The notes below the pieces were generated by a model. That model was not told the DNA's origin, did no database searches, and was given only the letters and a program-made list of their open reading frames with translations. 32,000 nt of DNA. It comes from Candidatus Saccharimonadota bacterium (lineage in GTDB: Bacteria; Bacteroidota; Bacteroidia; Flavobacteriales; Blattabacteriaceae). Positions 1,336-29,926 of the stretch are shown here, piece after piece. The stretch's first letter is position 1. Each line of letters begins with the position of its first letter. Where the stretch lies: contig NZ_CP059199.1 in assembly GCF_014251775.1 (NCBI RefSeq), forward strand, positions 120,001 through 152,000, read 5' to 3'. The translations under genes were made by a program, and so were the position numbers.

Positions 1336-1908
1336 ATGAAATGGATTCATTCACTAATGAGTTGTTTTATGATACTTTTTAGTATCATAGACATATTAGG
1401 AAATGCCCCAATTATTATGGGGTTTAAATCAAAAGGAAACATTATAGATACTAAAAAAGTTATTATTACTTCTCTTATTATATTTTTATCTTTCCTATTT
1501 TTAGGACAGCCAATATTACAAATTATAGGAGTAGATATAAACTCTTTTTCTGTTGCCGGATCTATTGTATTATTTATAATTGGATTAGAAATGATATTAG
1601 GAGTAGATTTCCACAAGACATCAGAACATTCACAAACTTCTATAGTCCCTATAGCTTTTCCATTGATTGCCGGACCAGGTTCACTAACCACTTTAGTATC
1701 ATTAAGAACCACTTATAACATAACCATAATTATTGCTTCTTTATTAATTAATATGATAGTAGTTTATTTAGTCATTGATAAATGTGATTTAATTGCTGAA
1801 AAAATTGGAAATAGTGGATTAGATATTTTGAAAAAAATATTTGGAATTGTTTTATTAGCTTTTGCTGTTAAAATATTTGGAGCAAATGCTGGAAAATTAA
1901 TTCAATAA
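1336..1908 (+). CDS. MarC family (UPF0056/NAAT) integral membrane protein
   Basis: 190-aa ORF that is hydrophobic throughout. The N-terminal FSIIDILGNAPII motif and a central IAFPLIAGPGS motif are typical of MarC-family proteins. Confidence 0.75.
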   Translation: MKWIHSLMSCFMILFSIIDILGNAPIIMGFKSKGNIIDTKKVIITSLIIFLSFLFLGQPILQIIGVDINSFSVAGSIVLFIIGLEMILGVDFHKTSEHSQTSIVPIAFPLIAGPGSLTTLVSLRTTYNITIIIASLLINMIVVYLVIDKCDLIAEKIGNSGLDILKKIFGIVLLAFAVKIFGANAGKLIQ

Positions 1909-2252
1909 ATTTTTTATTTCTTTAAATATTTTTTTTACGGAATTATTGATATTTTCGTACTTAGGAAGTATAGAAGATTTATAGTAAAATATTATATAAA
2001 TTCTATTTTTAGATGAAACTAGATATTTTTTATTCTCTAAAAAAGAAGATCGCATTAACCTTTTTATCCTATTCCTATGAACTGATTTTTTAAAAATTTT
2101 TTTTTTACTAAAAAGCCTATTAATTTAACAGATGAATTTTCTTTACATTTTATTTTTTTTATTTCAAAAAATAAAATAATTGGATAATTAAAAAAAAATT
2201 TTCCATTTTTTAAAATTCTTGAAAAGATATTTTTTTTATTCAATTTATTCAT
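1897..2252 (-). pseudogene. rnpA: Ribonuclease P protein component, interrupted by one frameshift in an A10 tract; may be expressed through slippage
   Basis: The tracked ORF 2064..2252 gives MNKLNKKNIFSRILKNGKFFFNYPI...LVKKK. A second frame runs stop-free from the tract to the TAA at 1897-1899 and gives KKSVHRNRIKRLMRSSFLENKKYL..IYIIFYYK..KKIFKEIKNLLN, which contains the RNR motif. The total is 356 nt (3n-1), and one extra A gives a colinear 118-aa RnpA. Confidence 0.8.
2097..2106 (-). repeat. A10 homopolymer on the coding strand, at the rnpA frameshift site
   Basis: T10 counted directly on the + strand at 2097-2106. The two rnpA reading frames switch here. Confidence 0.9.
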
Positions 2253-3243
2253 ATTTTTTTATAAATTCTTCTAATTTATTTACCATTTTATTGGGACCAC
2301 AAATAAATGGAGTCCTTTGATGTAAGGAGGCAGGTTGTATATCCAAAATTCTTTTATATCCATTAGAAGCTTTACCACCTGCTTGTTCTGTTAAAAAAGC
2401 AATAGGATTACATTCATAAAGTAATCTTAATTTTCCATTTGGAAATAATGAAGTTTTAGGATACATATATATTCCACCATGAATGATATTTCTATGAAAA
2501 TCTCCTACTAAAGATCCAATATATCTTGCAGTATAAGGTCTATTTTCATATTCTTCTTGACAATATCTAATAAATTTTTTTATTCCATTGGAGAATTTAA
2601 CATAATTTCCATCATTAATAGAATAAATTTTTTCTTTTTCCGGAAATGAAATATTAGGATGAGATAAATAAAACGTTCCTATTGAAGGATCTAATGTAAA
2701 TCCATGTACACCATTTCCAGTAGTATATACTAACATAGTAGAAGTTCCATAAATAATATATCCTGCAATAATTTGTTGATTACCTTTTTGTAAAAAATCA
2801 TTAATTGTTAATTTACATTTATTTGTATATTTCATTTTATATACAGAAAATATAGTTCCGATAGATACATTAACATCAATATTTGATGATCCATCAAGTG
2901 GATCGATTAAAACAATATACTGATCTTCTATTGGATTATTTATCTTTTTGTCTATTATTATAAAATCTCTACTTTCCTCAGAAGCAATTCCACAAACTAC
3001 CTCTCTACTTTTAAAAGAATCAATAAATGTTTTATGAGAAAAAAAATCCAATTTTTGTTGATTTTCTCCCTGTATATTTTTTTTACCTGAACTACCGATA
3101 TTTTTAGTTAATCCAGCTTTATTGACTTCTTTATGAACGGCTTTAGCAGCCAATTTTATTGAGCTAAAAAATCTTAATAAAGATTCTTTAGAATGAGAAT
3201 AACCATCTTTATTCTCTATAATAAATTCTCCTAACGTATACAT
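2245..3243 (-). CDS. fbp: Fructose-1,6-bisphosphatase class 1
   Basis: Clear FBPase I similarity: MYTLGEFIIE.., DPLDGSSNIDVN, GTSTMLVYT, YxxNEGN-like SINDGNY and GGIYMYP. The tracked ORF starts at a TTG (3273). The ATG at 3243 (MYTLGEF) fits the conserved N-terminus better. The 3' end overlaps the rnpA start in ATGAATAA. Confidence 0.92.
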   Translation of the reverse strand: MYTLGEFIIENKDGYSHSKESLLRFFSSIKLAAKAVHKEVNKAGLTKNIGSSGKKNIQGENQQKLDFFSHKTFIDSFKSREVVCGIASEESRDFIIIDKKINNPIEDQYIVLIDPLDGSSNIDVNVSIGTIFSVYKMKYTNKCKLTINDFLQKGNQQIIAGYIIYGTSTMLVYTTGNGVHGFTLDPSIGTFYLSHPNISFPEKEKIYSINDGNYVKFSNGIKKFIRYCQEEYENRPYTARYIGSLVGDFHRNIIHGGIYMYPKTSLFPNGKLRLLYECNPIAFLTEQAGGKASNGYKRILDIQPASLHQRTPFICGPNKMVNKLEEFIKKYE

Positions 3244-3728
3244 AGGGAATAAAAAATTGAATATAAATATCAAACTTTTTTTTGAAAAAAATTGACTTAA
3301 CAGTCAACTTTTTATTATTCTAATTAATCATTAACGATTAATTAAAATTATAAATATCCAATTAATATTATTATGAAAAAATATAATTTTTTTTCATAAA
3401 TATTTTTTGAATTTTATTATGCATATTATAATATCTATTCCTTTACTTTTTTTATAAAAATAAAAACATTATAATTATAATAATATATAATTATCAATTT
3501 TTTGTATTAGGATAATATAAACAAATAAAAGATTAAGTATATTTAGAAAATAGTATTTTTTACTGAAGTTAATTGAATTGAATATAATTATAAACTTTAT
3601 AAAAAGTGATATTTTTTTTAATTATAATTTTAAAAACTTATTCGACTATAACTATAAAAAAATATAATATTTTAATTTAATTAAATATCAACTATAAAAA
3701 TTTTATATAGAAAAATAAAGAATTATCC

Positions 3729-4211
3729 ATGAATAAAATAATTAATATTTATACAGACGGATCTTCAAAAGGCAATCCAGGCCCGGGAGGATATAGCGTT
3801 TTTATTGAAAAATTTTTTGGCTATTCTTATTATAGAAACATAATATATGAAGGATTTCGTTGTACTACAAATAATAGAATGGAATTACTTGCGGTAATAA
3901 CTGGATTAAAAAATATTCGTACAAAAAAAAATACTATCATAGTATTTACTGATTCTAAATATATCATTAATGCGGTTAATAATAAATGGATTTATGAATG
4001 GGAAAAAAATAATTTTTATAAAAAAAAAAATATAGATCTATGGAAACTTTTTCTAAAATTTTTTACTACTAAATTGGTATTTTTTCATTGGATAAAATCA
4101 CATAATAATCATTATATAAATGAATTTTGTGATAAATTATCTACAATGACTTATAAAAATAATCAATTAAAAATTGATTATAATTATGAAAAATTAATGA
4201 ATAAAAAATAA
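3729..4211 (+). CDS. rnhA: Ribonuclease HI
   Basis: IYTDGSSKGNPGPGGY, NNRMELLAV, FTDSKYI, IKSHNNH..NEFCDKL carry the DEDD catalytic residues of RNase H1. The gene contains an in-frame A11 tract at 4020-4030. Confidence 0.9.
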   Translation: MNKIINIYTDGSSKGNPGPGGYSVFIEKFFGYSYYRNIIYEGFRCTTNNRMELLAVITGLKNIRTKKNTIIVFTDSKYIINAVNNKWIYEWEKNNFYKKKNIDLWKLFLKFFTTKLVFFHWIKSHNNHYINEFCDKLSTMTYKNNQLKIDYNYEKLMNKK

Positions 4212-4990
4212 TTTTTGTCTAATAATTTCATAAGTTATTATAGACATTGCGCTATTTACATTTAATGAATCAATGTCACCAAACATTGGAATTTTTATTA
4301 TCTTATATGCATTATTCATCCAAATATTGGATACTCCTTTATTTTCAGAACCAAAAACAATAGAAAAATCATAAATAGATGAGAAATCTACATTATATAA
4401 ATTTTCTGAATTTTCCTGTAATCCAGAAACTATAATTTTTATATTATTTTTTTTTAACCAATGAATAACAAAATCTATTTTTTCTATTATAATTTTGTTT
4501 GTAAAAACGCTTCCTAAACTATTTCTAATAACATTAGAATTAAAAATATAAGTTTTCATATTACATAATATTATCATTTTAACTCCTATCGAATTGGCAA
4601 TTCTTAACATTGCACCTAAATTACCGGGTTTTTCTATTCCATCTAATATAATAATCAAATTATAAAGATTTTTATTGTTATTAAAATTTATCGTTTTTAA
4701 ACGATGTAATTGTTTCTCTTTAAACAAAACTATAATTCCATCAGAATTTTTTCTATATACTAGTTTTTCAAAAATGTTTCTACTTATAGAAAATAAAATA
4801 TTTTCATATGTTTTGATTAAATTAAATTTTAAAAAAATTTTTTCATATATAAATATTTTTATAGGAGTAAACCCTCCTTTTATAGCCATTTTAAACTCTC
4901 TTAATCCTTCTACAAGAAATAATTTTTTTTTTTACAAATTTTTTTTAAATTTTTAATATTTAAATTATTAATACTATATATTTTTTTCAT
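4194..4990 (-). CDS. SpoU/TrmH-family RNA 2'-O-methyltransferase; the N-terminal 26 codons are separated from the main ORF by a frameshift in an A11 tract
   Basis: The main ORF 4194..4889 has the SPOUT motifs LDGIEKPGNLGAMLRIANSIG, IVFGSENKGVS and SLNVNSAMSIITYE. In-frame codons upstream of the tracked ATG still read KKKLFLVEGLREFK. A second frame from the ATG at 4988-4990 reads MKKIYSINNLNIKNLKKICKKK. Adding one A to the 797-nt span gives a 265-aa protein of typical family length. Confidence 0.85.
4923..4933 (-). repeat. A11 homopolymer on the coding strand, at the SpoU-family methyltransferase frameshift site
   Basis: T11 counted directly on the + strand at 4923-4933. Confidence 0.9.
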
Positions 4991-5013
4991 ATTTTTTTAT
5001 TTTAATTAATTTT

Positions 5014-5444
5014 ATGAAAAATTATTTTAATAATATAAATAAAGAAAATGATTTAACTTACATGAAAATTGCGATCGAAGAATCAAAACATTCTAAATGT
5101 AAAAAAAAAAAGTAGGCGCAGTTATAGTTAATAATAGAAAAATAATATCTAATGGTTATAATATAAACCCAATTAAAAATGATTGTGAATGTGAAGATGA
5201 AAAAGGAAAAACTAAATGGTATGTAATACATGCAGAAGCTAATGCAATATTAAAATTATCATACTCTTATTCTTTATCATCTAAAGAATCATCTATATAT
5301 GTTACACATTCTCCATGTAAAGAATGTAGTAAATTGATCTATTTATCCAAGATAAAAAAAGTTGTTTTTTTACACAAAAAAAACAACAATGGATTAATTT
5401 TTTTAAAAAAATTGAAAATAATAGTATATCAAATACATTTATAA
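5014..5444 (+). pseudogene. Deoxycytidylate (dCMP) deaminase, interrupted by one frameshift in an A11 tract; absent from the ORF track
   Basis: The ATG at 5014 opens MKNYFNNINKENDLTYMKIAIEESKHSKCKKKK and hits TAG at 5113. Frame 3 from 5112 reads VGAVIVNNRKIISNGYN..WYVIHAEANAIL..IYVTHSPCKECSKLI..VYQIHL, stopping at 5442-5444. The HAE and PCxxC zinc motifs of the CDA fold are present. The span is 431 nt (3n-1), and one extra A gives 143 aa. Confidence 0.8.
5101..5111 (+). repeat. A11 homopolymer at the dCMP deaminase frameshift site
   Basis: Eleven consecutive A counted at 5101-5111. Confidence 0.9.
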
Positions 5445-5527
5445 CCCAAGTGGCGAAAATAGGTATACGCGTTGGATTCAAAATCCAATGATTTTATATC
5501 ATGCGGGTTCGATTCCCGCCTTGGGTA
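5444..5527 (+). tRNA. tRNA-Leu (anticodon CAA), type II with long variable arm
   Basis: Hand-folded cloverleaf. The acceptor stem is acccaag/cttgggt. The D arm is gcg..cgc with GG in the loop. The anticodon stem is ttgga/tccaa with loop ttCAAaa. The 14-nt variable arm has stem tgat/atca. The T arm is gcggg-ttcgatt-cccgc and the discriminator is A. No CCA is encoded. Confidence 0.88.
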
Positions 5528-5531
5528 TTAT

Positions 5532-7226
5532 TTAAAATAAAAAATATCTTTGAGATAGTGGTATAAATTTAGATGGATTAGATTCAATTTTATCCCCATT
5601 AATATATACAGTATAATTTTTAGGATCTACTTCTATAGATGGTAAATTACTATTTAATATCATTTCTTTCTTAGAAAGATTGCGACATTTTTTTATTATT
5701 TTTATTTGCTTTTTAACATTATTTTTTTCAAAAAAATTGTTATTGATAGAAGATGATGATACAAAAATACTGCTTAATTTTGGATCAAAATAACCAAACA
5801 TTTTTCTATACATAAATGGTTGAGGTGTAGGAATAGTAGCATTTGGATCTCCTACACATGCATATACTATCATTCCACCTTTTATAACTAATTCAGGTTT
5901 TACTCCAAAAAAAGATGGTTTCCATAAAACAAGATCTGCCATTTTTCCAATATGAATGGATCCTACATATTCTGAAATACCATGAGTAATAGAAGGATTT
6001 ATAGTATATTTAGATATATATCTTTTTACTCTAAAATTGTCATTATTGCATTTAGATCCTATTTCTTTTTTCATTTTATCAGCTGTTTGCCAAGTACGTC
6101 TTACTACTTCCCCTATTCTTCCCATTGCTTGAGAATCAGAACTTATCATGCTAATTGCACCAATATCATGCAAAAAGCCTTCTGCACTAATAGTTTCACT
6201 TCTTATTCTAGATTTAGCAAAAGCTATATCTTCTGGTAAATTTGAATCTAAATGATGACATATCATTAACATATCTAAATGTTCATCAATTGTATTATAA
6301 GTATATGGAATAGTAGGACTAGTAGAAGAAGGTAAAACATTAGGATAAGATATAACTTTTAATAAATCTGGTGAATGTCCACCCCCTGCTCCTTCTGTAT
6401 GATAAGTATGAATAGTGCGATTTTTAAATATTTTTATTGTATCTTCAATATAACCAGATTCATTCAATGAATCTGTATGAATATTAACTTGTATATCTAA
6501 TTTTTCGGAAACATTTAAACATTGATCAATGACATTTGGAGTACATCCCCAATCTTCATGAATTTTTAAACCTCCTGCTCCTGATTCTATTTGTTCAATA
6601 AGTGCTTTTGGATTAGAACTATTTCCGCGAGCAAGTATAACAAAATTAATAGGAATATGATCAGTACTATTTAACATTTTTCTTATATTCCAAATTCCTG
6701 AAGTGCAATTTGTAGCAATTGTCCCCGTTGTAGGCCCCGATCCACCGCCAATAATGGTAGTAGTTCCACTTTCTAGTGCTACTTCAAGCAATTGTGGACA
6801 AATGTAATGAACATGACTATCTACACTACCAGATGTGACAATTAAATTTTCTGAAGAAATAACTTCAGTTCCTGCTCCTATATACATATTAGGATTTACT
6901 CCATCCATAAAATATGGATTTCCAGATTTTCCTATTCCGACAATAATTCCATCTTTGATTCCAATATCAGCTTTTACAATCCCCCAATAGTCAATAATAA
7001 CAGCATTAGTAATTACTAAATCCAAAACTCCATCATTTCTTGTAGCAATAGGATGTTGTCCCATTCCATCCCTAATTACTTTTCCTCCTCCAAAAACACA
7101 TTCATCTCCATAAATAGTATAATCTTTTTCTATTTCTATCCATAAATCAGTGTCTCCTAAACGAATTTTATCTCCTTTAGTAGGTCCATATATACTAGAA
7201 TAATCTTTTCTAGAGACTTTTTTCAT
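5532..7226 (-). CDS. ureC: Urease alpha subunit
   Basis: The 564-aa ORF starts [28 protein letters not shown]. It also carries the nickel-site region [27 protein letters not shown] and [10 protein letters not shown]. Confidence 0.97.
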
Positions 7227-8077: not shown

Positions 8078-10525
8078 ATGCAAGTTTTAAAGTTTGGAGG
8101 CAGTTCTATAGCTCATTCTAATTCCATAAAATGTATTTGTTCTTTATTAGAAAAAAAACCTAAGGGAAAATATGCAATTGTAGTATCTGCATTAGGAAAT
8201 ATTACCGATCAATTAATTAATTGTGGAAAATTTGCTTCTAAAAGAAAAAATATATATAAAAATATTTTAGAAAAAATAGAAAAACGTCATATTAAAATTA
8301 TTAAAGACCTATTTCCAATTACTTATCAAAGTCATTTAATTGGTTGGATAAAAAAAAATATGAATGATTTAGAAAATTTATGTGATGGAATTTTCCAGGT
8401 AGAAGAATTATCAAAACGTTCATTGGATAAAATAATGAGTTTTGGAGAATTGAGTTCATCTTTTTTAATTTCTGAAAAATTAAAACAATCTGGATTAAAT
8501 ACTAAATGTAAAGATAGTAGAGATTTAATTGTTACAGATTCTCAATTTGGATGTGCACAAGTAGATTTTATAAATAGCAATCATCGTATTAATAAATATT
8601 TCCATGAAAACAATGTATCGGATTATACTGTTTTTCCAGGATTTATTGGCGCAACTATAAATAATGAAACTACTACTCTTGGACGTGGAGGGTCCGATTA
8701 TACTGCTTCTATATTGGCCGCTGCTATATCTGCAAATATATTAGAAATATGGACCGATGTAAGTGGAATGATGACTGCTAACCCAAAAATAGTTAATCAA
8801 GCTTTTCCTATTAAGGAAATTTCTTATGAAGAAGCTATGGAATTATCCCATTTTGGAGCAAAAGTAATTTATCCTCCTACAATACAACCTGTTATGAAAA
8901 GAAATATTCCTATAAAAATTAAAAATACTTTTTCTACAATAGATTCCGGTACACTTATTTATATTAACAAAAATACGAATATCAGTCAACCAGTAACTGG
9001 TATTTCCGGAATTCAAAACATATCTTTACTTACATTAAAAGGTAGTGGAATGGTAGGGGTACCTGGTTATTCCAAACGATTATTTGAAGCATTATCATTA
9101 GAAAAAATAAATGTAATATTCATCACTCAAAGTTCTTCAGAACATTCAATAACTACAGGAGTCCATGATACTGATCTAATGAAAGCTAAAAAAGCAATTT
9201 ACAATGAATTTTCCCAAGAAATAAAACAAAAATATATTGATCCATTAATGATAGAAAAAAAATTATGTATTATAGCTGTAGTAGGAGATAATATGAAAAA
9301 TCTTCATGGAACTAGTGGAAAAATGTTTTCTGCTTTAGGTAGAAATAGTATTAATGTTAGAGCTATAGCTCAAGGTTCAACCGAAAAAAATATATCTGCT
9401 GTTATTCGTAAAGAAGATTTTAAAAAAGCATTAAATACTTTACATGAAGCATTTTTTGAAAGCCCACCAAAACAAATAAATTTATTTATTTGTGGAGTGG
9501 GACAGGTAGGAAGTAAATTAATTGAACAAATAAGAAAACAAAAAAACTATTTATTAAAAGAATTAAAATTACAAGTTAGAATTATAGGATTAGCTAATAG
9601 TAAAAAAATGTATTTTAATAATCGTGGAATAAATTTAACTCAATGGAATCATTATTTACATAAAGGAAATAAAATGAATATTCATTCTTTAATGAAAAAA
9701 GTATCGAGATTAAATTTAAGAAATAGTTTATTTGTTGATAATACTGCCAGTAAAGAAATTGCCATGATTTATGATAATTTTCTTAAAAATGGAGTAGGTG
9801 TTATCACTTGTAATAAAATTGCTTGTTCTTCCAACTATGAACATTATAAAAAATTAAAAATACTGTCAAGACATTTCAAAGCTCCATTTTTATTCGAAAC
9901 TAATGTTGGTGCTAGTTTACCAGTAATTAGTACTCTTAATGATCTTATAAATAGTGGAGATAAAATTAATAAAATTGAAGCCGTTTTATCAGGCAGTTTA
10001 AATTTTATATTTAATCATTTTATAGGAAAAGAATCATTTTTAGAAGTAGTTAAATATGCTCAATTAAAAGGATTCACAGAGCCTGATCCTCGTATTGATT
10101 TAAATGGACTAGATGTAATGCGAAAAATATTAATTTTAGCAAGAGAATGCGGAAATCCATTAGAAATTAATGATATAAATCAAAAAAATTTTTTACCTGA
10201 AAGTTGTTATGAATCTAAATCTTTAGAAGAATTTTATCAAGAATTATATAAACATAATAATTATTTTTTTGAAATAAGATATAATGCAGAAAAAAATAAT
10301 AAAAAATTACGTTTTATTGCACGTTATGAAAATGGAACAGCTTCTGTTGGATTAGAATCAGTTAATCAAACCCATCCATTTTTTCAATTAGAAGGAAAAG
10401 ATAATATGGTGCTATATAATACATTTCGTTATTCTGAACAACCTCTGATTATAAAAGGAGCTGGTGCTGGTGCTGAAGTAACTGCATCGGGAGTATTTTC
10501 AGATATTATAAAAGCAACTAAGTAA
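8078..10525 (+). CDS. thrA: Bifunctional aspartokinase / homoserine dehydrogenase
   Basis: 815 aa. The N-terminal VLKFGGSS kinase motif, ACT-like middle region and C-terminal homoserine dehydrogenase (GVGQVGS Rossmann motif, GAGAGAEVTASGV) are all present. Confidence 0.96.
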   Translation: MQVLKFGGSSIAHSNSIKCICSLLEKKPKGKYAIVVSALGNITDQLINCGKFASKRKNIYKNILEKIEKRHIKIIKDLFPITYQSHLIGWIKKNMNDLENLCDGIFQVEELSKRSLDKIMSFGELSSSFLISEKLKQSGLNTKCKDSRDLIVTDSQFGCAQVDFINSNHRINKYFHENNVSDYTVFPGFIGATINNETTTLGRGGSDYTASILAAAISANILEIWTDVSGMMTANPKIVNQAFPIKEISYEEAMELSHFGAKVIYPPTIQPVMKRNIPIKIKNTFSTIDSGTLIYINKNTNISQPVTGISGIQNISLLTLKGSGMVGVPGYSKRLFEALSLEKINVIFITQSSSEHSITTGVHDTDLMKAKKAIYNEFSQEIKQKYIDPLMIEKKLCIIAVVGDNMKNLHGTSGKMFSALGRNSINVRAIAQGSTEKNISAVIRKEDFKKALNTLHEAFFESPPKQINLFICGVGQVGSKLIEQIRKQKNYLLKELKLQVRIIGLANSKKMYFNNRGINLTQWNHYLHKGNKMNIHSLMKKVSRLNLRNSLFVDNTASKEIAMIYDNFLKNGVGVITCNKIACSSNYEHYKKLKILSRHFKAPFLFETNVGASLPVISTLNDLINSGDKINKIEAVLSGSLNFIFNHFIGKESFLEVVKYAQLKGFTEPDPRIDLNGLDVMRKILILARECGNPLEINDINQKNFLPESCYESKSLEEFYQELYKHNNYFFEIRYNAEKNNKKLRFIARYENGTASVGLESVNQTHPFFQLEGKDNMVLYNTFRYSEQPLIIKGAGAGAEVTASGVFSDIIKATK

Positions 10526-10558: not shown

Positions 10559-11503
10559 ATGAAGGCAATAAAAATATTTGCACCAGCTACTATAGCCAAT
10601 TTAGTTTGTGGTTTTGATATAATAGGATTAGCTCTAAATTATCCGAAAGATGAAATTTATATGTATAAATCTAATTCCCCTGGAATCAGAATTAATAAGA
10701 TTTACGGAACTTCTTTACCCAAAGATCCTAAAAAAAATGCTGCATTTGCCGCATTACATTTTTTTTTAAATAAATATTATCAATTAAAAAAAATAAATAA
10801 TATAGGATTTGAAATAGAATTAATTAAAAATATTAATCCTGGTAGTGGAATAGGATCTAGTGCAGCTAGTGCTGCCGGTGTAGTTTTTGGTGCAAATGTT
10901 TTATTAGAAAATCCTTTTAATACCATTCAATTAATTCGTTTCGCTATGGAAGGAGAAAGAGTTGCAAGTGGATCCGCACATGCGGATAATGTAGCTCCTG
11001 CAATTATGGGAGGATTAACTTTAGTTCGTAGTTATCATCCTTTAGATATCACTAAATTACATGCTCCTAATCAACTTTGGATTAGCTTAATACATCCAAA
11101 AATTGAAATAAAAACATCAGATGCTAGAGAAATATTAAAAAAATACATTTTAATGAAAAATGCTATTCAACAATGGGGAAATATCGGTGCATTAGTAGCA
11201 GGATTATATCAAGAAAATTATGATTTAATTAGTAGATCATTAGAAGATGTTATTGTAGAGCCAATAAGATCCATGTTAATTCCAGCATTTTATGAATTAA
11301 AAAAAAAATGTAAAGAAATAGGAGCCTTAGGGGGGGGGATTTCAGGATCTGGTCCATCTATTTTTATGTTAAGTAAAGGGAATAAAATAGCAAAAAAAGT
11401 CACTAAAATAATGAATCGAGTTTATTCTTCATTAAGAATTGATTATAAAACTTATACATCTTCTATCAACCAAAATGGATTAAAATGGACTGAAATGGAT
11501 TAA
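10559..11503 (+). CDS. thrB: Homoserine kinase
   Basis: The GHMP kinase motif PGSGIGSSAASAAG and the N-terminal FAPATIANLVCGFD are present. The gene sits between thrA and thrC. Confidence 0.95.
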   Translation: MKAIKIFAPATIANLVCGFDIIGLALNYPKDEIYMYKSNSPGIRINKIYGTSLPKDPKKNAAFAALHFFLNKYYQLKKINNIGFEIELIKNINPGSGIGSSAASAAGVVFGANVLLENPFNTIQLIRFAMEGERVASGSAHADNVAPAIMGGLTLVRSYHPLDITKLHAPNQLWISLIHPKIEIKTSDAREILKKYILMKNAIQQWGNIGALVAGLYQENYDLISRSLEDVIVEPIRSMLIPAFYELKKKCKEIGALGGGISGSGPSIFMLSKGNKIAKKVTKIMNRVYSSLRIDYKTYTSSINQNGLKWTEMD

Positions 11504-12866: not shown

Positions 12867-13661
12867 TTAGATAGCTACATCACCTTTAATATGAGGATGA
12901 GGATTATAATTTATTAATTTAAAATCTTTAAAAGAAAAATTAAAAATATTTTTTATAAATGGATTAATAGTCATTGTTGGAAGTTTTCTAGGTGTTCTAC
13001 TGATTTGAAGTTTTACTTGTTTAATATGATTATTATAAATATGAGCATCTCCTATAACATGAATAAATTCTTTTACTTTTAAATTTAGTGTCTTAGCTAT
13101 CATTATAATTAATAATGAATATGAAGCAATATTAAAAGGTAACCCTAAAAATGCGTCAGCACTTCTTTGATATAAGAGTAGTGATAATTCTTTATTTAAT
13201 ACATAAACTTGAAATAGCAAATGACACGGAGGTAATGCCATATTTTTTATCATTCCTACATTCCAAGTAGAAACGATCATTCTTCTTGAATAAGGATTAT
13301 GTTCGATATCGTGTATAAGATTATGGATTTGATCAATAGGATCATTATCATAAGACGGCCATCTTCTCCATTGAAATCCATATATTGGGCCAAGATCACC
13401 ATCTTTATCTGCCCATTCATTCCAAATATTAACATTATTTTTATTCAAGTAAATTATGTTAGTAGATCCTTTTAAAAACCACAATAATTCATGAATTATA
13501 GCATTTATATTCAATCTTTTAGTAGTTAAAAGAGGAAATCCATGATTTAAGTTATATCTCATTTGAGATCCAAATATACTAATAGTCCCTACTCCAGTTC
13601 TATCTTTTTTTTTTTGACCATTTTTCAATATGTTTTTCAATAAATCTATATACTGTTTCAT
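12867..13661 (-). CDS. thyA: Thymidylate synthase
   Basis: [39 protein letters not shown] are canonical ThyA motifs. The 3' end is 1 nt from the thrC stop. The gene contains an in-frame A11 tract (T11 at 13605-13615 on +). Confidence 0.96.
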
Positions 13662-16602: not shown

Positions 16603-16618
16603 AAAAAAAAAAAAAAAA
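16603..16618 (+). repeat. A16 homopolymer in the aroB upstream region
   Basis: Sixteen consecutive A counted at 16603-16618, 27 nt before the aroB ATG. It is the longest homopolymer I noticed in the window. Confidence 0.9.
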
Positions 16619-16645: not shown

Positions 16646-17722
16646 ATGAATATGAATAATTATAAAACTAAAATTTTTTTTAATGAAGAAGCTTATGAAC
16701 GATTAAAAATATATTTACTTGATAATATTTTTTCTGCAAATGATTTATTTATTTTAGTAGATAACATAACTAACAAATATTGTCTTCCTAGACTTTTATA
16801 TTACATAGATTTTTTGAAAAAATCTAATATTATTCATATTAAAAATGGAGAAGAAAAAAAAAATATATATACATGTATTGAAATATGTAAAGAAATAGAA
16901 AAATATAAAGGTACTAGAAATAGTTTGATAATTAATTTAGGGGGTGGAGTTTTAACAGATATAGGTGGATTTACAGCATCCATATTTAAAAGAGGAATCC
17001 GTTATATAAATATTCCCACTACTTTGTTAGGAATGGTTGATGCAGCTATAGGATATAAAACTGGAGTTAATCTAAACTCCATTAAAAATGAATTAGGAAC
17101 TTTTTATATTCCAGAACTATTAATTATAGATACTAATTTTTTAAAAACACTTCCAGATAAAGAAATTATATCTGGGATGGCTGAAATGTTTAAACATGGA
17201 TTAATATGGGATAAATCTTTTTGGAAAGAAATGAAGGAAAATTATTTTTATATAAAAAATAAAAATTTTTCTGATAAAAAAAATTATTTAATTAAAAGAT
17301 CTATTGAAATAAAAATAGAAATTGTTCATAAAGATCCAAAAGAAAAAGGATTAAGAAAAATTCTTAATTTTGGACATACTATTGGACATGCCTTAGAAAG
17401 TTTTTTTTTGAATAAAAAAAAAATTATGCATGGAGTAGCTATAGCAAATGGAATTATTTACGAGTCATGGATATCTTATAAAGAAAATAAATTATCCATA
17501 GAAAATTATAACGAAATAAAGTCAACTTTAATGAATTTTTATCCAATAAAAAAAGGATTTATAGATTCAGAAATTAAAGAATTGATTAATATAATGAAAC
17601 ATGATAAAAAAAATGAAAAAATGGATTTTCAATTTTCATTATTGAATAAAATTGGTTCATGTTCTTATAATTGTAAAATTGATAATTCTATTATTAAAAA
17701 AAGTTTTATCAAACTTAAATGA
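16646..17722 (+). CDS. aroB: 3-dehydroquinate synthase
   Basis: The ORF carries LGGGVLTDIGGFTAS, the TTLLGMVDAAIG.KTGVN motif and NFGHTIGHALE metal-binding histidines. Confidence 0.92.
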   Translation: MNMNNYKTKIFFNEEAYERLKIYLLDNIFSANDLFILVDNITNKYCLPRLLYYIDFLKKSNIIHIKNGEEKKNIYTCIEICKEIEKYKGTRNSLIINLGGGVLTDIGGFTASIFKRGIRYINIPTTLLGMVDAAIGYKTGVNLNSIKNELGTFYIPELLIIDTNFLKTLPDKEIISGMAEMFKHGLIWDKSFWKEMKENYFYIKNKNFSDKKNYLIKRSIEIKIEIVHKDPKEKGLRKILNFGHTIGHALESFFLNKKKIMHGVAIANGIIYESWISYKENKLSIENYNEIKSTLMNFYPIKKGFIDSEIKELINIMKHDKKNEKMDFQFSLLNKIGSCSYNCKIDNSIIKKSFIKLK

Positions 17723-24945: not shown

Positions 24946-27900
24946 ATGATTTCTTTTAATAAAAGTTCTTATAGAATTTATATAAGAAGTAAATCATACT
25001 TCGATAAAGATTCAATTGAATTATGTAAAAAACTAAGAAGTATCAATATTTTTATACATAGAATAATAATATATCGTATATATGAATTTTTTCATATAAA
25101 AAAAAAATTTCTTGTTGATTATTTAAAAAATGTATTAGTAGATCCTGTTACAGAAATTTTTTATTTTAAAAAATATTTTGATTATCCGTATTTTGAATGC
25201 AACTCAAATAATGATGATCATCGCTCTAGCGCTGCTATGTTATGCATGAAAATATTCAATCATAACTTTTCTAAAAATGTTTTAATAAATTCTAAATTAT
25301 TGATTGAATTAGTTGGATTAAATAAAAATTCTAATAAATCTGTAAAAAAAATTAAAAATTACATTGTAGAAAATTATTCCTATTTTATAACACATAGGAA
25401 TAATTTTTATCATAAAGAAATTAATATTAAAAATCATATTAATTATATAAAAGATTTTAAACATTATTCTATAAATAAAATAGAAGAATTTCATAAAAAA
25501 TATAATCTATCAATAGATATAAAAGATTTATTATTGATTCAAAAATATTTTTTAATAGAAAAAAGAGATCCTTCTTTAGAAGAAATACTTATTTTAAATA
25601 CTTATTGGTCGGATCATTGTAGACATACAACATTTTTTACAGAATTAGAAAATATATGTTTTAGAGGTTTTTTAAAGAATACATATAAAAAAATATTTTC
25701 TAAATATTTAGAAGATAAAAAATCAATAGGAAAATCAAAAAAACCTATTAATTTAATGGAATTATCTCAACTTCCTTATGAAATTATCCGTAATCAAAAA
25801 AAATTAAATTTTGTTTCATCAGATGAAAATAATGCATGTACAATTATAATAGATGTTCATTATCTGGATAAAAAAAGAAATAAAGAAAAATGGTATTTAT
25901 TATTTAAAAATGAAACTCATAATCATCCTACTGAAGGAAATCCATTTAATGGAGCCAATACTTGCATTGGTGGAGCAATCAGAGATCCTTTATCGGGTAG
26001 ATCATTTGTTTATCAAGGGATTAGAATTAGTGGATCCTCTGATCCTAATGAAAAAAATAAAATTTATGGAAAAATACCAGAAAATAAAATATGTTTAGAA
26101 TCAGCTTATGGATTCAGTTCATATGGAAATCAAATAGGATTAGCAACAACACATGTTAGTGAGATTTATCATAAAGGTTATAGAGCAAAAAGATTGGAAT
26201 TAGGAATGGTTGTTGGAGCTGCTCCAGTAACTTATATTAAGTGGAAAAAGCCAAAAGTAGGAGATATTATATTATTAATAGGAGGATTAACCAGAAAAGA
26301 AGGAATAGGAGGGGCTAGTGAATCATCGAAAAATATAAATGATATTGATATCAATATTAATAATCAACAAAAAGGGAATCCTTTAATTGAAAGAAATATT
26401 CAAAGACTTTTTAGAAAAAAAGAGGTAACTAATTTGATAAAAAAATGTAATGATCTTGGGGCTGGAGGATTAGCAGTTTCTTTAGGAGAATTGCACAATA
26501 GTGTAGAAATTTATTTAGAAAAAGTACCTATAAATGAAAAAATTCTACCAATAGAAATTGCACTTTCTGAATCTCAAGAACGTATGGCGATAGTAGTAGA
26601 TCCAAAGAATGCAGAAAAAATTATTAAGTTTTCTCATAAAGAAAACTTAATCTGTAATCCCATAGCCAAGATTACAAATAATAATAGGATAGTTTTTCTA
26701 TATAATAAAAAAGTAATTTTCGACGTAAAAAGTACTTTTTTAAATACAAGAGGATATAAAAAAAAAAATAAAGTAATAGTTGATTCTCCTAATTATATTT
26801 CACCTTTTATTAAATCTACAAAATTATTTTTTAGTAAGAAAAATTTTTTAAAAACTCTTTCAAACCTAAATATCGCTTCTCAATTAAGCTTAATAGAAAT
26901 GTTTGATAGTACTGTTGGAGGGACTACCGTATTAATGCCATTTGGAGGAAAATATCAAATGACTCCAGCTGAAGGAAGTGTCCAAAAAATACCAGTTTTT
27001 CATGGAAGTACTGAAACAGTTAGTATGGTAACTTGGGGATTTCATCCTAAAATTTCTACATGGAGTCCTTTTCATGGTGGTGCATATGCAGTATTAGAAT
27101 GTATTTCAAAAATTGTTTCTATGGGTGGGAATTACAAAAATGTTTATCTTAGTTTTCAAGAATATTATAAAAAAATGGAAAAAAATCCTAAAAACTGGGG
27201 AATCCCTTTTTCTTCATTATTAGGTGCATATCATGCTCAAATGGAATTAGAAATAGTTTGTTTAGGCGGTAAAGATTCTATGTCAGGAACTTATAAAAAT
27301 ATTCATGTCCCACCTACTCTAATTTCATTTGGAATTACAACTGATTCATATTTTAATGTAATTTCTCCTGAATTTAAAAAAATAGGTAGCAAAATATATT
27401 TATATAATCATATGCCATTAGAAAATGAAATGCCAAACTTTAATTCTATTAAAAATGCTTATGATAAAATCCATGAAGGAGTACTTTCCAAAAAGATTAT
27501 TTCATTAAAAACAGTAAAAGATGGTGGAATAGCTGTGGCTATTGCCAAAATGTCTTTTGGAAATAAATTAGGAGCAGAAATAAATTGTAATGAAAATCTA
27601 TTGAAGACCCATATAGGATCATTAATTATAGAATCTTCTTATAATCTTTCAAAAGATTTTATTCTAATAGGAAAAGTAATAAATTCTAAAAATTTAATTT
27701 TTAACTCTATTTCAATTGCTATTGATGAAGCAATTAAAAATTGGTCTAAAAAATTATTAAATATTTTTTCTCCTAATGAAAATAGGATGAAATATAAATT
27801 AAAATTTAAAAGAAATATAACAATAAAAGAAAAAAAAATAATATATAGAAAAAATAATTCAATAAAAATTGGGACCCCAAATGTATTTATTCCGATATTT

Positions 27901-29197: not shown

Positions 29198-29926
29198 ATG
29201 AATTATAATATTATAAAAAAAAATATCTTATTAGAAGGAAAAACAAAAATAATATATAAAACTAATAATTCTTTTAAGATAATTATTCATCACAAAGATG
29301 ATTTAACGGCTTTAAATGGATTGAAAAAAAGTTGTTTATTAGATAAAGGAGTTTTAACTAATGAAATTAGTACATTAATATTTAAATTTCTTAATTATTC
29401 TGGAATAAAAACACATTTTATTAAAAAGATAAACAATAGAGAACAACTCTGTCATAAAGTGAATATAATACCTTTAGAATTTGTTATAAGAAATATTGTT
29501 ACTGGAAGTTTATCCAAACGTTTGGGGATTAAAGAAAAAAAAAAAATTCCAAATGGAATCATTGAATTATTTTATAAAGATGATAAATTAGGTGATCCAC
29601 TTATTAATGAAAGTCATGCAATTTTTCTAGAAATCATATCCCATGAAGAATTAATTTATATTTTTTCTATTGTAAAAAACATAAATAATTTACTGAAATT
29701 ATATTTTTTCAATAAAGGAATTATATTAGTTGATTTTAAAATTGAATTTGGAAGAAATAAAAATAATGAAATTTTACTTTCTGATGAAATTAGTCCAGAT
29801 ACTTGTAGATTATGGGATAGGAATACGATGAAAAAATTAGATAAAGATTTATTTCGTATGGAATTTCCAAAAAAAGAAAAAATATTCGATTCCTATATGG
29901 AAATCTTAAAAAGATTAAATAAATAA
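29198..29926 (+). CDS. purC: Phosphoribosylaminoimidazole-succinocarboxamide synthase
   Basis: The ORF carries EGKTKIIY, LEFVIRN..TGS and VDFKIEFG..LSDEISPDTCRLWD. It contains an in-frame A12 tract at 29535-29546. Confidence 0.92.
   Translation: MNYNIIKKNILLEGKTKIIYKTNNSFKIIIHHKDDLTALNGLKKSCLLDKGVLTNEISTLIFKFLNYSGIKTHFIKKINNREQLCHKVNIIPLEFVIRNIVTGSLSKRLGIKEKKKIPNGIIELFYKDDKLGDPLINESHAIFLEIISHEELIYIFSIVKNINNLLKLYFFNKGIILVDFKIEFGRNKNNEILLSDEISPDTCRLWDRNTMKKLDKDLFRMEFPKKEKIFDSYMEILKRLNK

Follow-up and report, generated by a model that had tools for sequence, protein, structure and literature searches.

The locus and the comparison set

We describe three genes that are each interrupted by a single break in reading frame and that lie within 3.5 kb of one another in a 32,000-nucleotide (nt) stretch of contig NZ_CP059199.1 (positions 120,001–152,000, forward strand), referred to throughout as the window. 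The genes are rnpA, which encodes the protein subunit of RNase P, a gene for an RNA 2'-O-methyltransferase of the SpoU/TrmH family (SpoU) and a gene for a ComEB-like dCMP deaminase (dcd). The window has a guanine + cytosine (GC) content of 24% and carries ureAB/ureC, thrABC, thyA, aroB, gyrA, purA/B/L/C and a fused pyrEF. It belongs to Blattabacterium cuenoti, an obligate endosymbiont of the cockroach fat body with a small genome (562 kb). The NCBI proteins of this strain include WP_238785157, which is 100% identical to the C-terminal part of SpoU, and WP_185865120, the urease alpha subunit. The identity of SpoU to that of the nearest sampled relatives is only 63–68%.

The homologous region was compared among 12 other Blattabacterium strains or assemblies. 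Five of these (L083, L084, L085, L099 and L100) belong to the same accession series as the window, and L101 and L102 are metagenome assemblies from the Joint Genome Institute (JGI). The symbiont of Periplaneta is represented by the BPLAN reference (L086) and nine read-archive assemblies (L087–L095), and that of Blattella by the Bge reference (L096) and two read-archive assemblies (L097 and L098). Products repaired by the addition of one A were scored against Pfam and TIGR families with curated cut-offs. A preliminary description of the sequence had reported the three genes as frameshifted, each of length 3n − 1; its coordinates and tract lengths are confirmed here, and one additional A converts each gene to a full-length member of its family.

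The frame break in rnpA

The rnpA gene lies on the reverse strand (1897–2252) and is 356 nt (3n − 1) in length with a single frame break. Its N-terminal part is read in frame 0 and its C-terminal part, containing the motif KSVHRNRIKR, in the frame reached by +1 nt. The change of frame falls within a slippery cluster at 2086–2106 which, on the sense strand, consists of A10 (2097–2106; T10 on the forward strand), T5 (2092–2096) and A6 (2086–2091). With one A added, the product has 118 amino acids, matches Ribonuclease_P (PF00825) with an E value of 6.5e-15, scores 45.4 bits against TIGR00188 (cut-off 38.35) and retains the RNR motif of KSVHRNRIKR. The convergent 3' ends of rnpA and marC overlap by 12 nt (1897–1908).

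The state of the tract in other strains can be read from the distance between the Val/Ile codon that precedes it and the Ser/Ala codon that opens (S/A)V.RNR, which is 24 nt when the gene is intact and 23 nt in the window. The tract is in frame, at 24 nt, in L081 (A8T8A6), L082 (A12T4A6), L099 and L101, the tracts including one that begins A13 and A14TTA6. A distance of 23 nt, needing +1, is shared by the window with L083, L084 and L085, in which the tracts either begin A10 or read A13TTA6. The remaining alleles, in L001, L100 and the Periplaneta and Blattella symbionts, measure 22 nt and need −1; the tracts here are A10T4A6, A10T3CA6 and A11GTTA6. Eight lineages thus have the gene out of frame at this homologous site, four of them needing +1 and four −1, and all of the broken alleles carry A10–A13. 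The generalization in the preliminary description that the genes are always one A short thus applies to the window but not to rnpA elsewhere. The Periplaneta allele (A10TTTCA6) is the same in the reference and in five independent Illumina assemblies from the read archive, giving six concordant calls. Both halves of the gene are conserved across 11 strains and are open to a normal start and stop in every broken lineage.

Two further irregularities were noted in this gene. In the Bge reference (position 11384 of L096) the final run is A5, compared with A6 in L097 and L098, so that the reference has 21 nt across the site, with an in-frame TAA. In L101 (approximately 11270–11290) the gene is in frame at A14, but a T10 run downstream of KASFFF holds a second break.

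In published work rnpA counts as a pseudogene or as missing in BBge, BPam and BMda and as intact in BCpu and BBor (Neef 2011; Patino-Navarrete 2013), and published comparisons treat its status in Blattabacterium as convergent gene loss (PMC3296467, PMC3590773). This earlier literature on rnpA makes no mention of a single conserved tract with both halves of the gene preserved.

The frame break in the dCMP deaminase gene

The dcd gene occupies 5014–5444 on the forward strand and is 431 nt (3n − 1) in length, again with a single frame break, upstream of the HAE and PCKEC zinc motifs. NCBI annotates only a C-terminal part of 93 amino acids. The site (5098–5115) reads TGT-A11-G-TAG, with A11 at 5101–5111, and is translated in frame 0 as C K K K K followed by a stop; the stop codons restrict the frame change to the tract itself. 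It holds the heptamer A_AAA_AAG in phase; with one more A, or after a −1 shift, it reads CKKKKVGAV as intact relatives do. The product repaired with one A has 143 amino acids and matches dCMP_cyt_deam_1 (PF00383) with an E value of 7.3e-26 and 90.5 bits (cut-off 25); the motifs HAEANA and SPCKEC are present, and the score is below the ComEB equivalog cut-off. The packing at the 3' end is very tight, the stop codon (5442–5444) overlapping the first base of tRNA-Leu(CAA) (5444–5527).

The same out-of-frame site, TGT-A11-GT(A/C)GG, occurs in the window, in L083, L084, L085, L099, L100, L101 and L102, in the BPLAN reference and in the two Blattella read-archive assemblies. Counted as lineages, dcd is broken in nine including the window, and in most strains a 0-frame TAG directly follows the heptamer. 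In-frame alleles are found in L001, where the tract is interrupted (A8GA3), and in the nine Periplaneta read-archive assemblies and the Bge reference, all with A12. CKKKKVGA is in frame in at least 11 further Blattabacterium lineages and the corresponding sequence of free-living relatives is CKRKQVGA; therefore, the tract is a product of AT drift with an ancestral length of 12 nt, from which many lineages are now one A short. Both halves of dcd are open in every broken lineage, and YMKLAIE..C, HAE and PCKEC are kept.

The frame break in the SpoU gene

The SpoU gene (4194–4990, reverse strand) is 797 nt (3n − 1) in length and is broken once, 22 codons from its start. NCBI annotates only the C-terminal part, of 231 amino acids, as the protein WP_238785157. 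The tract region (4910–4933) consists on the sense strand of A11 (4923–4933; T11 on the forward strand) followed by TTATTTCTTG and then a 0-frame stop TAG (4910–4912), and, given the stops, the frame can change only within the final nine A's or the 10 nt that follow. In alignment with the genes of Blattella, L085 and L101, the AAT TAT that follows the tract continues the frame read upstream of it. For this reason we place the lesion just 3' of the tract: judging from the alignment, the gene probably lost its base or bases 6–9 nt 3' of A11, outside the homopolymer. The earlier statement that each break lies inside poly(A) consequently stands for dcd, where it is the tract itself, and for rnpA in the sense that the change falls within the A10-T5-A6 cluster, but probably not for SpoU. 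A +1 slip in the SpoU A11 would nevertheless restore the frame, altering two or three residues of a strain-variable linker.

The repaired SpoU product has 265 amino acids and contains SpoU_methylase and MRM3-like_sub_bind (1.9e-30). Both domains are present, the catalytic domain (PF00588) scoring 106.3 bits and the N-terminal substrate-binding domain (PF22435) 31.4 bits, with overall scores below the RlmB and TrmH equivalog cut-offs. SpoU is intact in most strains, and in L099 a break at the homologous A11 likewise calls for +1. The annotated SpoU proteins of 229–253 amino acids in several strains were considered as further frameshifts; this proved true for L099, whereas that of L101 reflects only the call of an internal start.

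A comparison of the tracts among strains, which the preliminary description had proposed, thus finds the same breaks recurring, in eight lineages for rnpA, nine for dcd and two for SpoU, with the two halves of each gene open throughout.

Accuracy of the tract lengths

One alternative is that the true tracts are one A longer than in the assembly and that all three genes are intact in the window strain. All three breaks in the window do need +1, the sign typical of homopolymer contraction. In the Periplaneta and Blattella symbionts alike, assemblies also disagree on whether the dcd tract is A11 or A12, and the BPLAN reference departs from the read-archive assemblies at two further homopolymers, in rnhA. 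These two lie 24 nt apart (positions 8934 and 8958 of L086), where the reference has A6 and T10 and L087–L095 have A5 and T11, and the rnhA call in the reference is of 99 instead of 158 amino acids; the reference is either in error here or carries two indels that compensate each other.

Sense-strand poly(A) tracts of at least 10 nt are, however, common within the coding sequence of the window, and 10 of them are in frame as against the three that break the frame. The rnhA gene, which lies between the broken genes and provides an internal control, has an in-frame A11 on the forward strand (4020–4030). Others are found in thyA (A11 on the reverse strand; T11 on the forward strand at 13605–13615), aroB (A10, 16854–16863), purL (A11, 26758–26768) and purC (A12, 29535–29546). 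These five had been listed previously, and both the tracts and the gene names proved right; to them we add pyrEF (A11, 576–586), thrB (A10), a second tract in aroB (A10), purA (A10) and a further one in purL (A10). Genomes of the same project have 7–14 in-frame tracts of A10–A15 per 16-kb locus, and yet the breaks always strike the same genes and not tracts at random. No disrupted gene other than rnpA, SpoU and dcd was found in the 32-kb window. A fourth break was considered in pyrEF, for which the list of open reading frames began at base 199, and was rejected as frame 0 is open from base 1.

The comparison between strains argues further against miscalled tracts. A broken rnpA is also carried by the three closest relatives and by the six concordant Periplaneta assemblies, and some of the broken alleles are 2 nt, not 1 nt, short of the intact length. 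Calls repeat within sets of assemblies (for dcd A12 in 9/9, A11 in 2/2 and A11 in 2/2; for rnpA 5/5), and the lesion in SpoU aligns outside the homopolymer. Judging from the accession series, which points to a 2020 project of a group whose published method is Illumina, the genome was probably sequenced in that way and not by pyrosequencing. Taken together, the comparative data lean clearly, as far as sequences can indicate, to real and tolerated frameshifts, and we regard an artefact at all three sites as very improbable. For the individual genes, the tract called in the window is almost certainly correct in rnpA, very probably so in dcd and likely to be so in SpoU. The preliminary description had offered polymerase slippage and homopolymer under-calling as equal possibilities; the recurrence of the breaks and the purifying selection described below favour real frameshifts, and under-calling no longer stands on an equal footing with the slippage that we infer.

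Constraint on the interrupted genes

The ratio of nonsynonymous to synonymous substitution rates (dN/dS), estimated by the NG86 method, which is crude at 24% GC, is 0.19–0.37 for the part of dcd that follows the break and 0.14–0.44 for the corresponding part of rnpA. Between L085 and L100, in both of which the genes are broken, the values are 0.19 and 0.33 for the C-terminal parts of dcd and rnpA, respectively. The control genes gave 0.02–0.12 (marC), 0.12–0.30 (fbp), 0.12–0.40 (rnhA) and 0.12–0.32 (ureAB). The segments past the break in rnpA and dcd are thus under purifying selection, like their intact neighbours.

These values bear on the proposal that the breaks are real and are not rescued at all, either because the genes are young pseudogenes or because products from internal starts (a SpoU protein of 231 amino acids and a deaminase of about 93) do the work. 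Several points favour this proposal: rnpA has already been scored as pseudogenised or absent in the three strains named above (Neef 2011; Patino-Navarrete 2013), the truncated SpoU and deaminase are annotated as proteins by NCBI, the N-terminal part of rnpA is weakly constrained, and the 562-kb genome is small and eroding. The erosion is evident within the window itself. Relatives encode plsC (1-acylglycerol-3-phosphate acyltransferase, about 253 amino acids) between rnhA and fbp; in the window this position is occupied by a spacer of 455 nt (3274–3728) with 11% GC and 11–20 stops in every frame, in which tblastn detected no similarity to plsC. This is a lineage-specific loss of a gene of phospholipid synthesis and illustrates the form that real gene loss takes in this genome.

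The interrupted genes do not resemble such a remnant. The halves of rnpA and dcd are open and conserved in all of the broken lineages, with dN/dS like that of intact neighbours even between pairs in which both members are broken, whereas a random frame of 60–110 codons at 24% GC would soon gain stops. The 93-residue deaminase would be without helix 1 and strand 1 (YMKLAIE..C..VGAVIV), which are kept in all of the broken strains, and in no broken allele is the slippery tract shorter than A10. Bacteria cannot do without the protein subunit of RNase P, and the gene for the RNA subunit is retained. On balance we consider the absence of any rescue to be unlikely.

Probable read-through of the breaks

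The recurrence of these breaks in other strains, in genes that have remained conserved, makes it most likely that they are real and are read through. The interpretation that we favour, and which we hold to be probable but by no means secure, is that they are single-base lesions of the chromosome and that the genes are still used by way of slippage of RNA polymerase. AT-biased mutation would have built the homopolymers from lysine-rich linkers, as in the change from CKRKQVGA to the CKKKKVGA that is encoded with A12, and the frame breaks would then have arisen where replication slipped, or where small deletions occurred, at these long A/T runs or next to them. Stuttering of RNA polymerase on a template of A10–A11 would give a mixed pool of transcripts, of which the fraction with one additional A (or, for rnpA of other strains, one fewer) would encode the full-length protein. 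A −1 slip of the ribosome on A_AAA_AAA/G may contribute as well. The outcome would be lower but sufficient amounts of the RNase P protein, the TrmH-type methyltransferase and the dCMP deaminase. What we infer for the window strain is, accordingly with this scheme, DNA with the tract lengths as called, transcripts of heterogeneous length and full-length protein. In Buchnera and Blochmannia, slippage on poly(A) yields 12–50% corrected transcripts and the frameshifts are conserved between species (PMC5009743, PMC3017870).

Correction by the ribosome, which the preliminary description did not consider, could also be the main route, with a −1 frameshift on A_AAA_AAG in dcd or on A_AAA_AAA in rnpA and SpoU. 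All three sites in the window need a −1 shift and each has an in-phase heptamer of the form X_XXY_YYZ; that of dcd is of the dnaX type and, as described above, is followed directly by a stop in most strains. A −1 shift and a transcript with one more A would give identical proteins at all three sites, and endosymbionts may keep indels that are compensated by translational frameshifting (PMC5009743). Against this, the rnpA tract calls for a shift in the other direction (+1) in four lineages, only some of which have a stop adjacent to the T run; the feature that is retained is the length of the tract, not a specific heptamer. Downstream of the dcd tract no structure that is stable or conserved was found, the window sequence folding with −3.1 kcal/mol (z +1.1) and the folds not being shared among nine strains. 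Bacteroidota make little use of Shine–Dalgarno pairing, so that an upstream stimulator like that of dnaX would be unlikely. We favour slippage of the polymerase over a ribosomal shift because rnpA needs correction in both directions, because no structure was found 3' of dcd and because tract length is what has been retained; a ribosomal shift as the main route we judge to be improbable.

Several observations weigh against polymerase slippage on real lesions. The N-terminal part of rnpA has a dN/dS of 0.36–0.95, the method itself is crude at this base composition, and the purifying selection seen between lineages could partly predate breaks that were independent and recent. The SpoU lesion probably lies outside the tract; the break in this gene is common to only one other strain (L099), and the product of 231 amino acids made from an internal start, which needs no recoding, might suffice. 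The calls for the window strain come from a single assembly. The dcd call is also unstable within a host, being A11 in the BPLAN reference and A12 in the nine Periplaneta read-archive assemblies, and in the opposite direction A12 in the Bge reference and A11 in the two from Blattella. The reference and the read-archive assemblies of one host differ by 5–15 substitutions per 13–15 kb, and for this reason we take the members of each pair to be different strains. The A11/A12 difference may accordingly be a strain polymorphism or real hypermutability, with errors in the older references as the alternative.

A stronger form of the slippage interpretation is that the off-frame states are themselves maintained, as conserved recoding sites that set a low level of expression: dcd TGT-A11-G(TAG), in about nine lineages, and the tract of rnpA, which is slippery in every case. 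We find this unlikely, although its probability is not negligible. If true, it would be the first programmed slippage or frameshift system in an endosymbiont of the Bacteroidota and would have persisted through the diversification of cockroaches.

Other features of the region

The longest tract in the window is an A16 (16603–16618) in the spacer upstream of aroB. In thrB, 22 nt past the in-frame A10, there is an in-frame G9 at 11330–11338 (GGG GGG GGG, encoding part of ALGGGISGSG) despite the GC content of 24%; within the region fetched, G runs in the other strains checked do not exceed six. The genes thrB and thrC are absent from the close relatives L085 and L100, in which thrA adjoins thyA, and are kept in the window and L084. 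The threonine pathway has thus been lost differentially within the clade.

In L081 and L082 (1074–3776), nrdF, a VRR_NUC gene, DUF1599 and dut are inserted between plsC and fbp. Both nrdF and dut are plasmid genes in other Blattabacterium strains (PMC3296467), which suggests that a plasmid has integrated into the chromosome. An Rfam match to 5_ureB_sRNA on the forward strand of the window (6782–7076; 50.5 bits, gathering threshold 40) is antisense to ureC and is most likely to represent conserved urease coding sequence recognized by a Helicobacter model and not a small RNA.

Implications and comparison with known systems

Read-through of the breaks would mean that Blattabacterium has not lost the product of rnpA, which is essential and acts in tRNA processing. 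It would also affect how the three genes are annotated across the genus, and tallies of gene loss that are based on the presence or absence of intact open reading frames would be biased wherever long A tracts occur. No analysis of rescue by slippage in Blattabacterium was found in the searchable literature, in which a 2024 paper gives a general caveat of one sentence (PMC11632294). Tests by complementary DNA (cDNA) sequencing and proteomics are feasible because the laboratory-reared hosts Periplaneta and Blattella carry the same rnpA break.

Of the systems with which these sites can be compared, dnaX (a −1 ribosomal shift in Escherichia coli and transcriptional slippage in Thermus) shares with dcd the heptamer in the right phase and a shifted product which, from its sequence, would be the functional full-length protein. 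The dcd site differs in having no downstream stem-loop, in having arisen by the loss of one A from an in-frame A12 and in giving no sign of two functional products. The dcd tract also recalls the phase-variable contingency loci of pathogens in that its length seems to switch between A11 (off-frame) and A12 (in frame) among very close strains. Unlike contingency loci, the genes here are housekeeping genes of a clonal, vertically inherited symbiont, nothing marks the switching as adaptive, and the toggling could be assembly noise.

The closest parallel is the slippage described in Buchnera and Blochmannia (Tamas et al. 2008; Wernegreen et al. 2010; Williams and Wernegreen 2010, PMC3017870), which are likewise AT-rich obligate endosymbionts of insects. 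In both cases a single indel lies at a sense-strand poly(A) of at least 10 nt in an otherwise intact gene (with the SpoU lesion probably adjacent to it), the break is common to strains or species without decay of the gene, and information-processing genes are among those hit. There are also differences. In Blattabacterium the rnpA tract is out of frame in both directions among lineages, and at the window SpoU slippage would compensate a neighbouring lesion, not revert the lesion itself. Buchnera and Blochmannia are gammaproteobacteria, whereas Blattabacterium is a member of the Bacteroidota (Flavobacteriales) in which the phenomenon is known here from DNA sequence; the maintenance of frameshifts at homopolymers would thus extend from gammaproteobacterial to flavobacterial symbionts.

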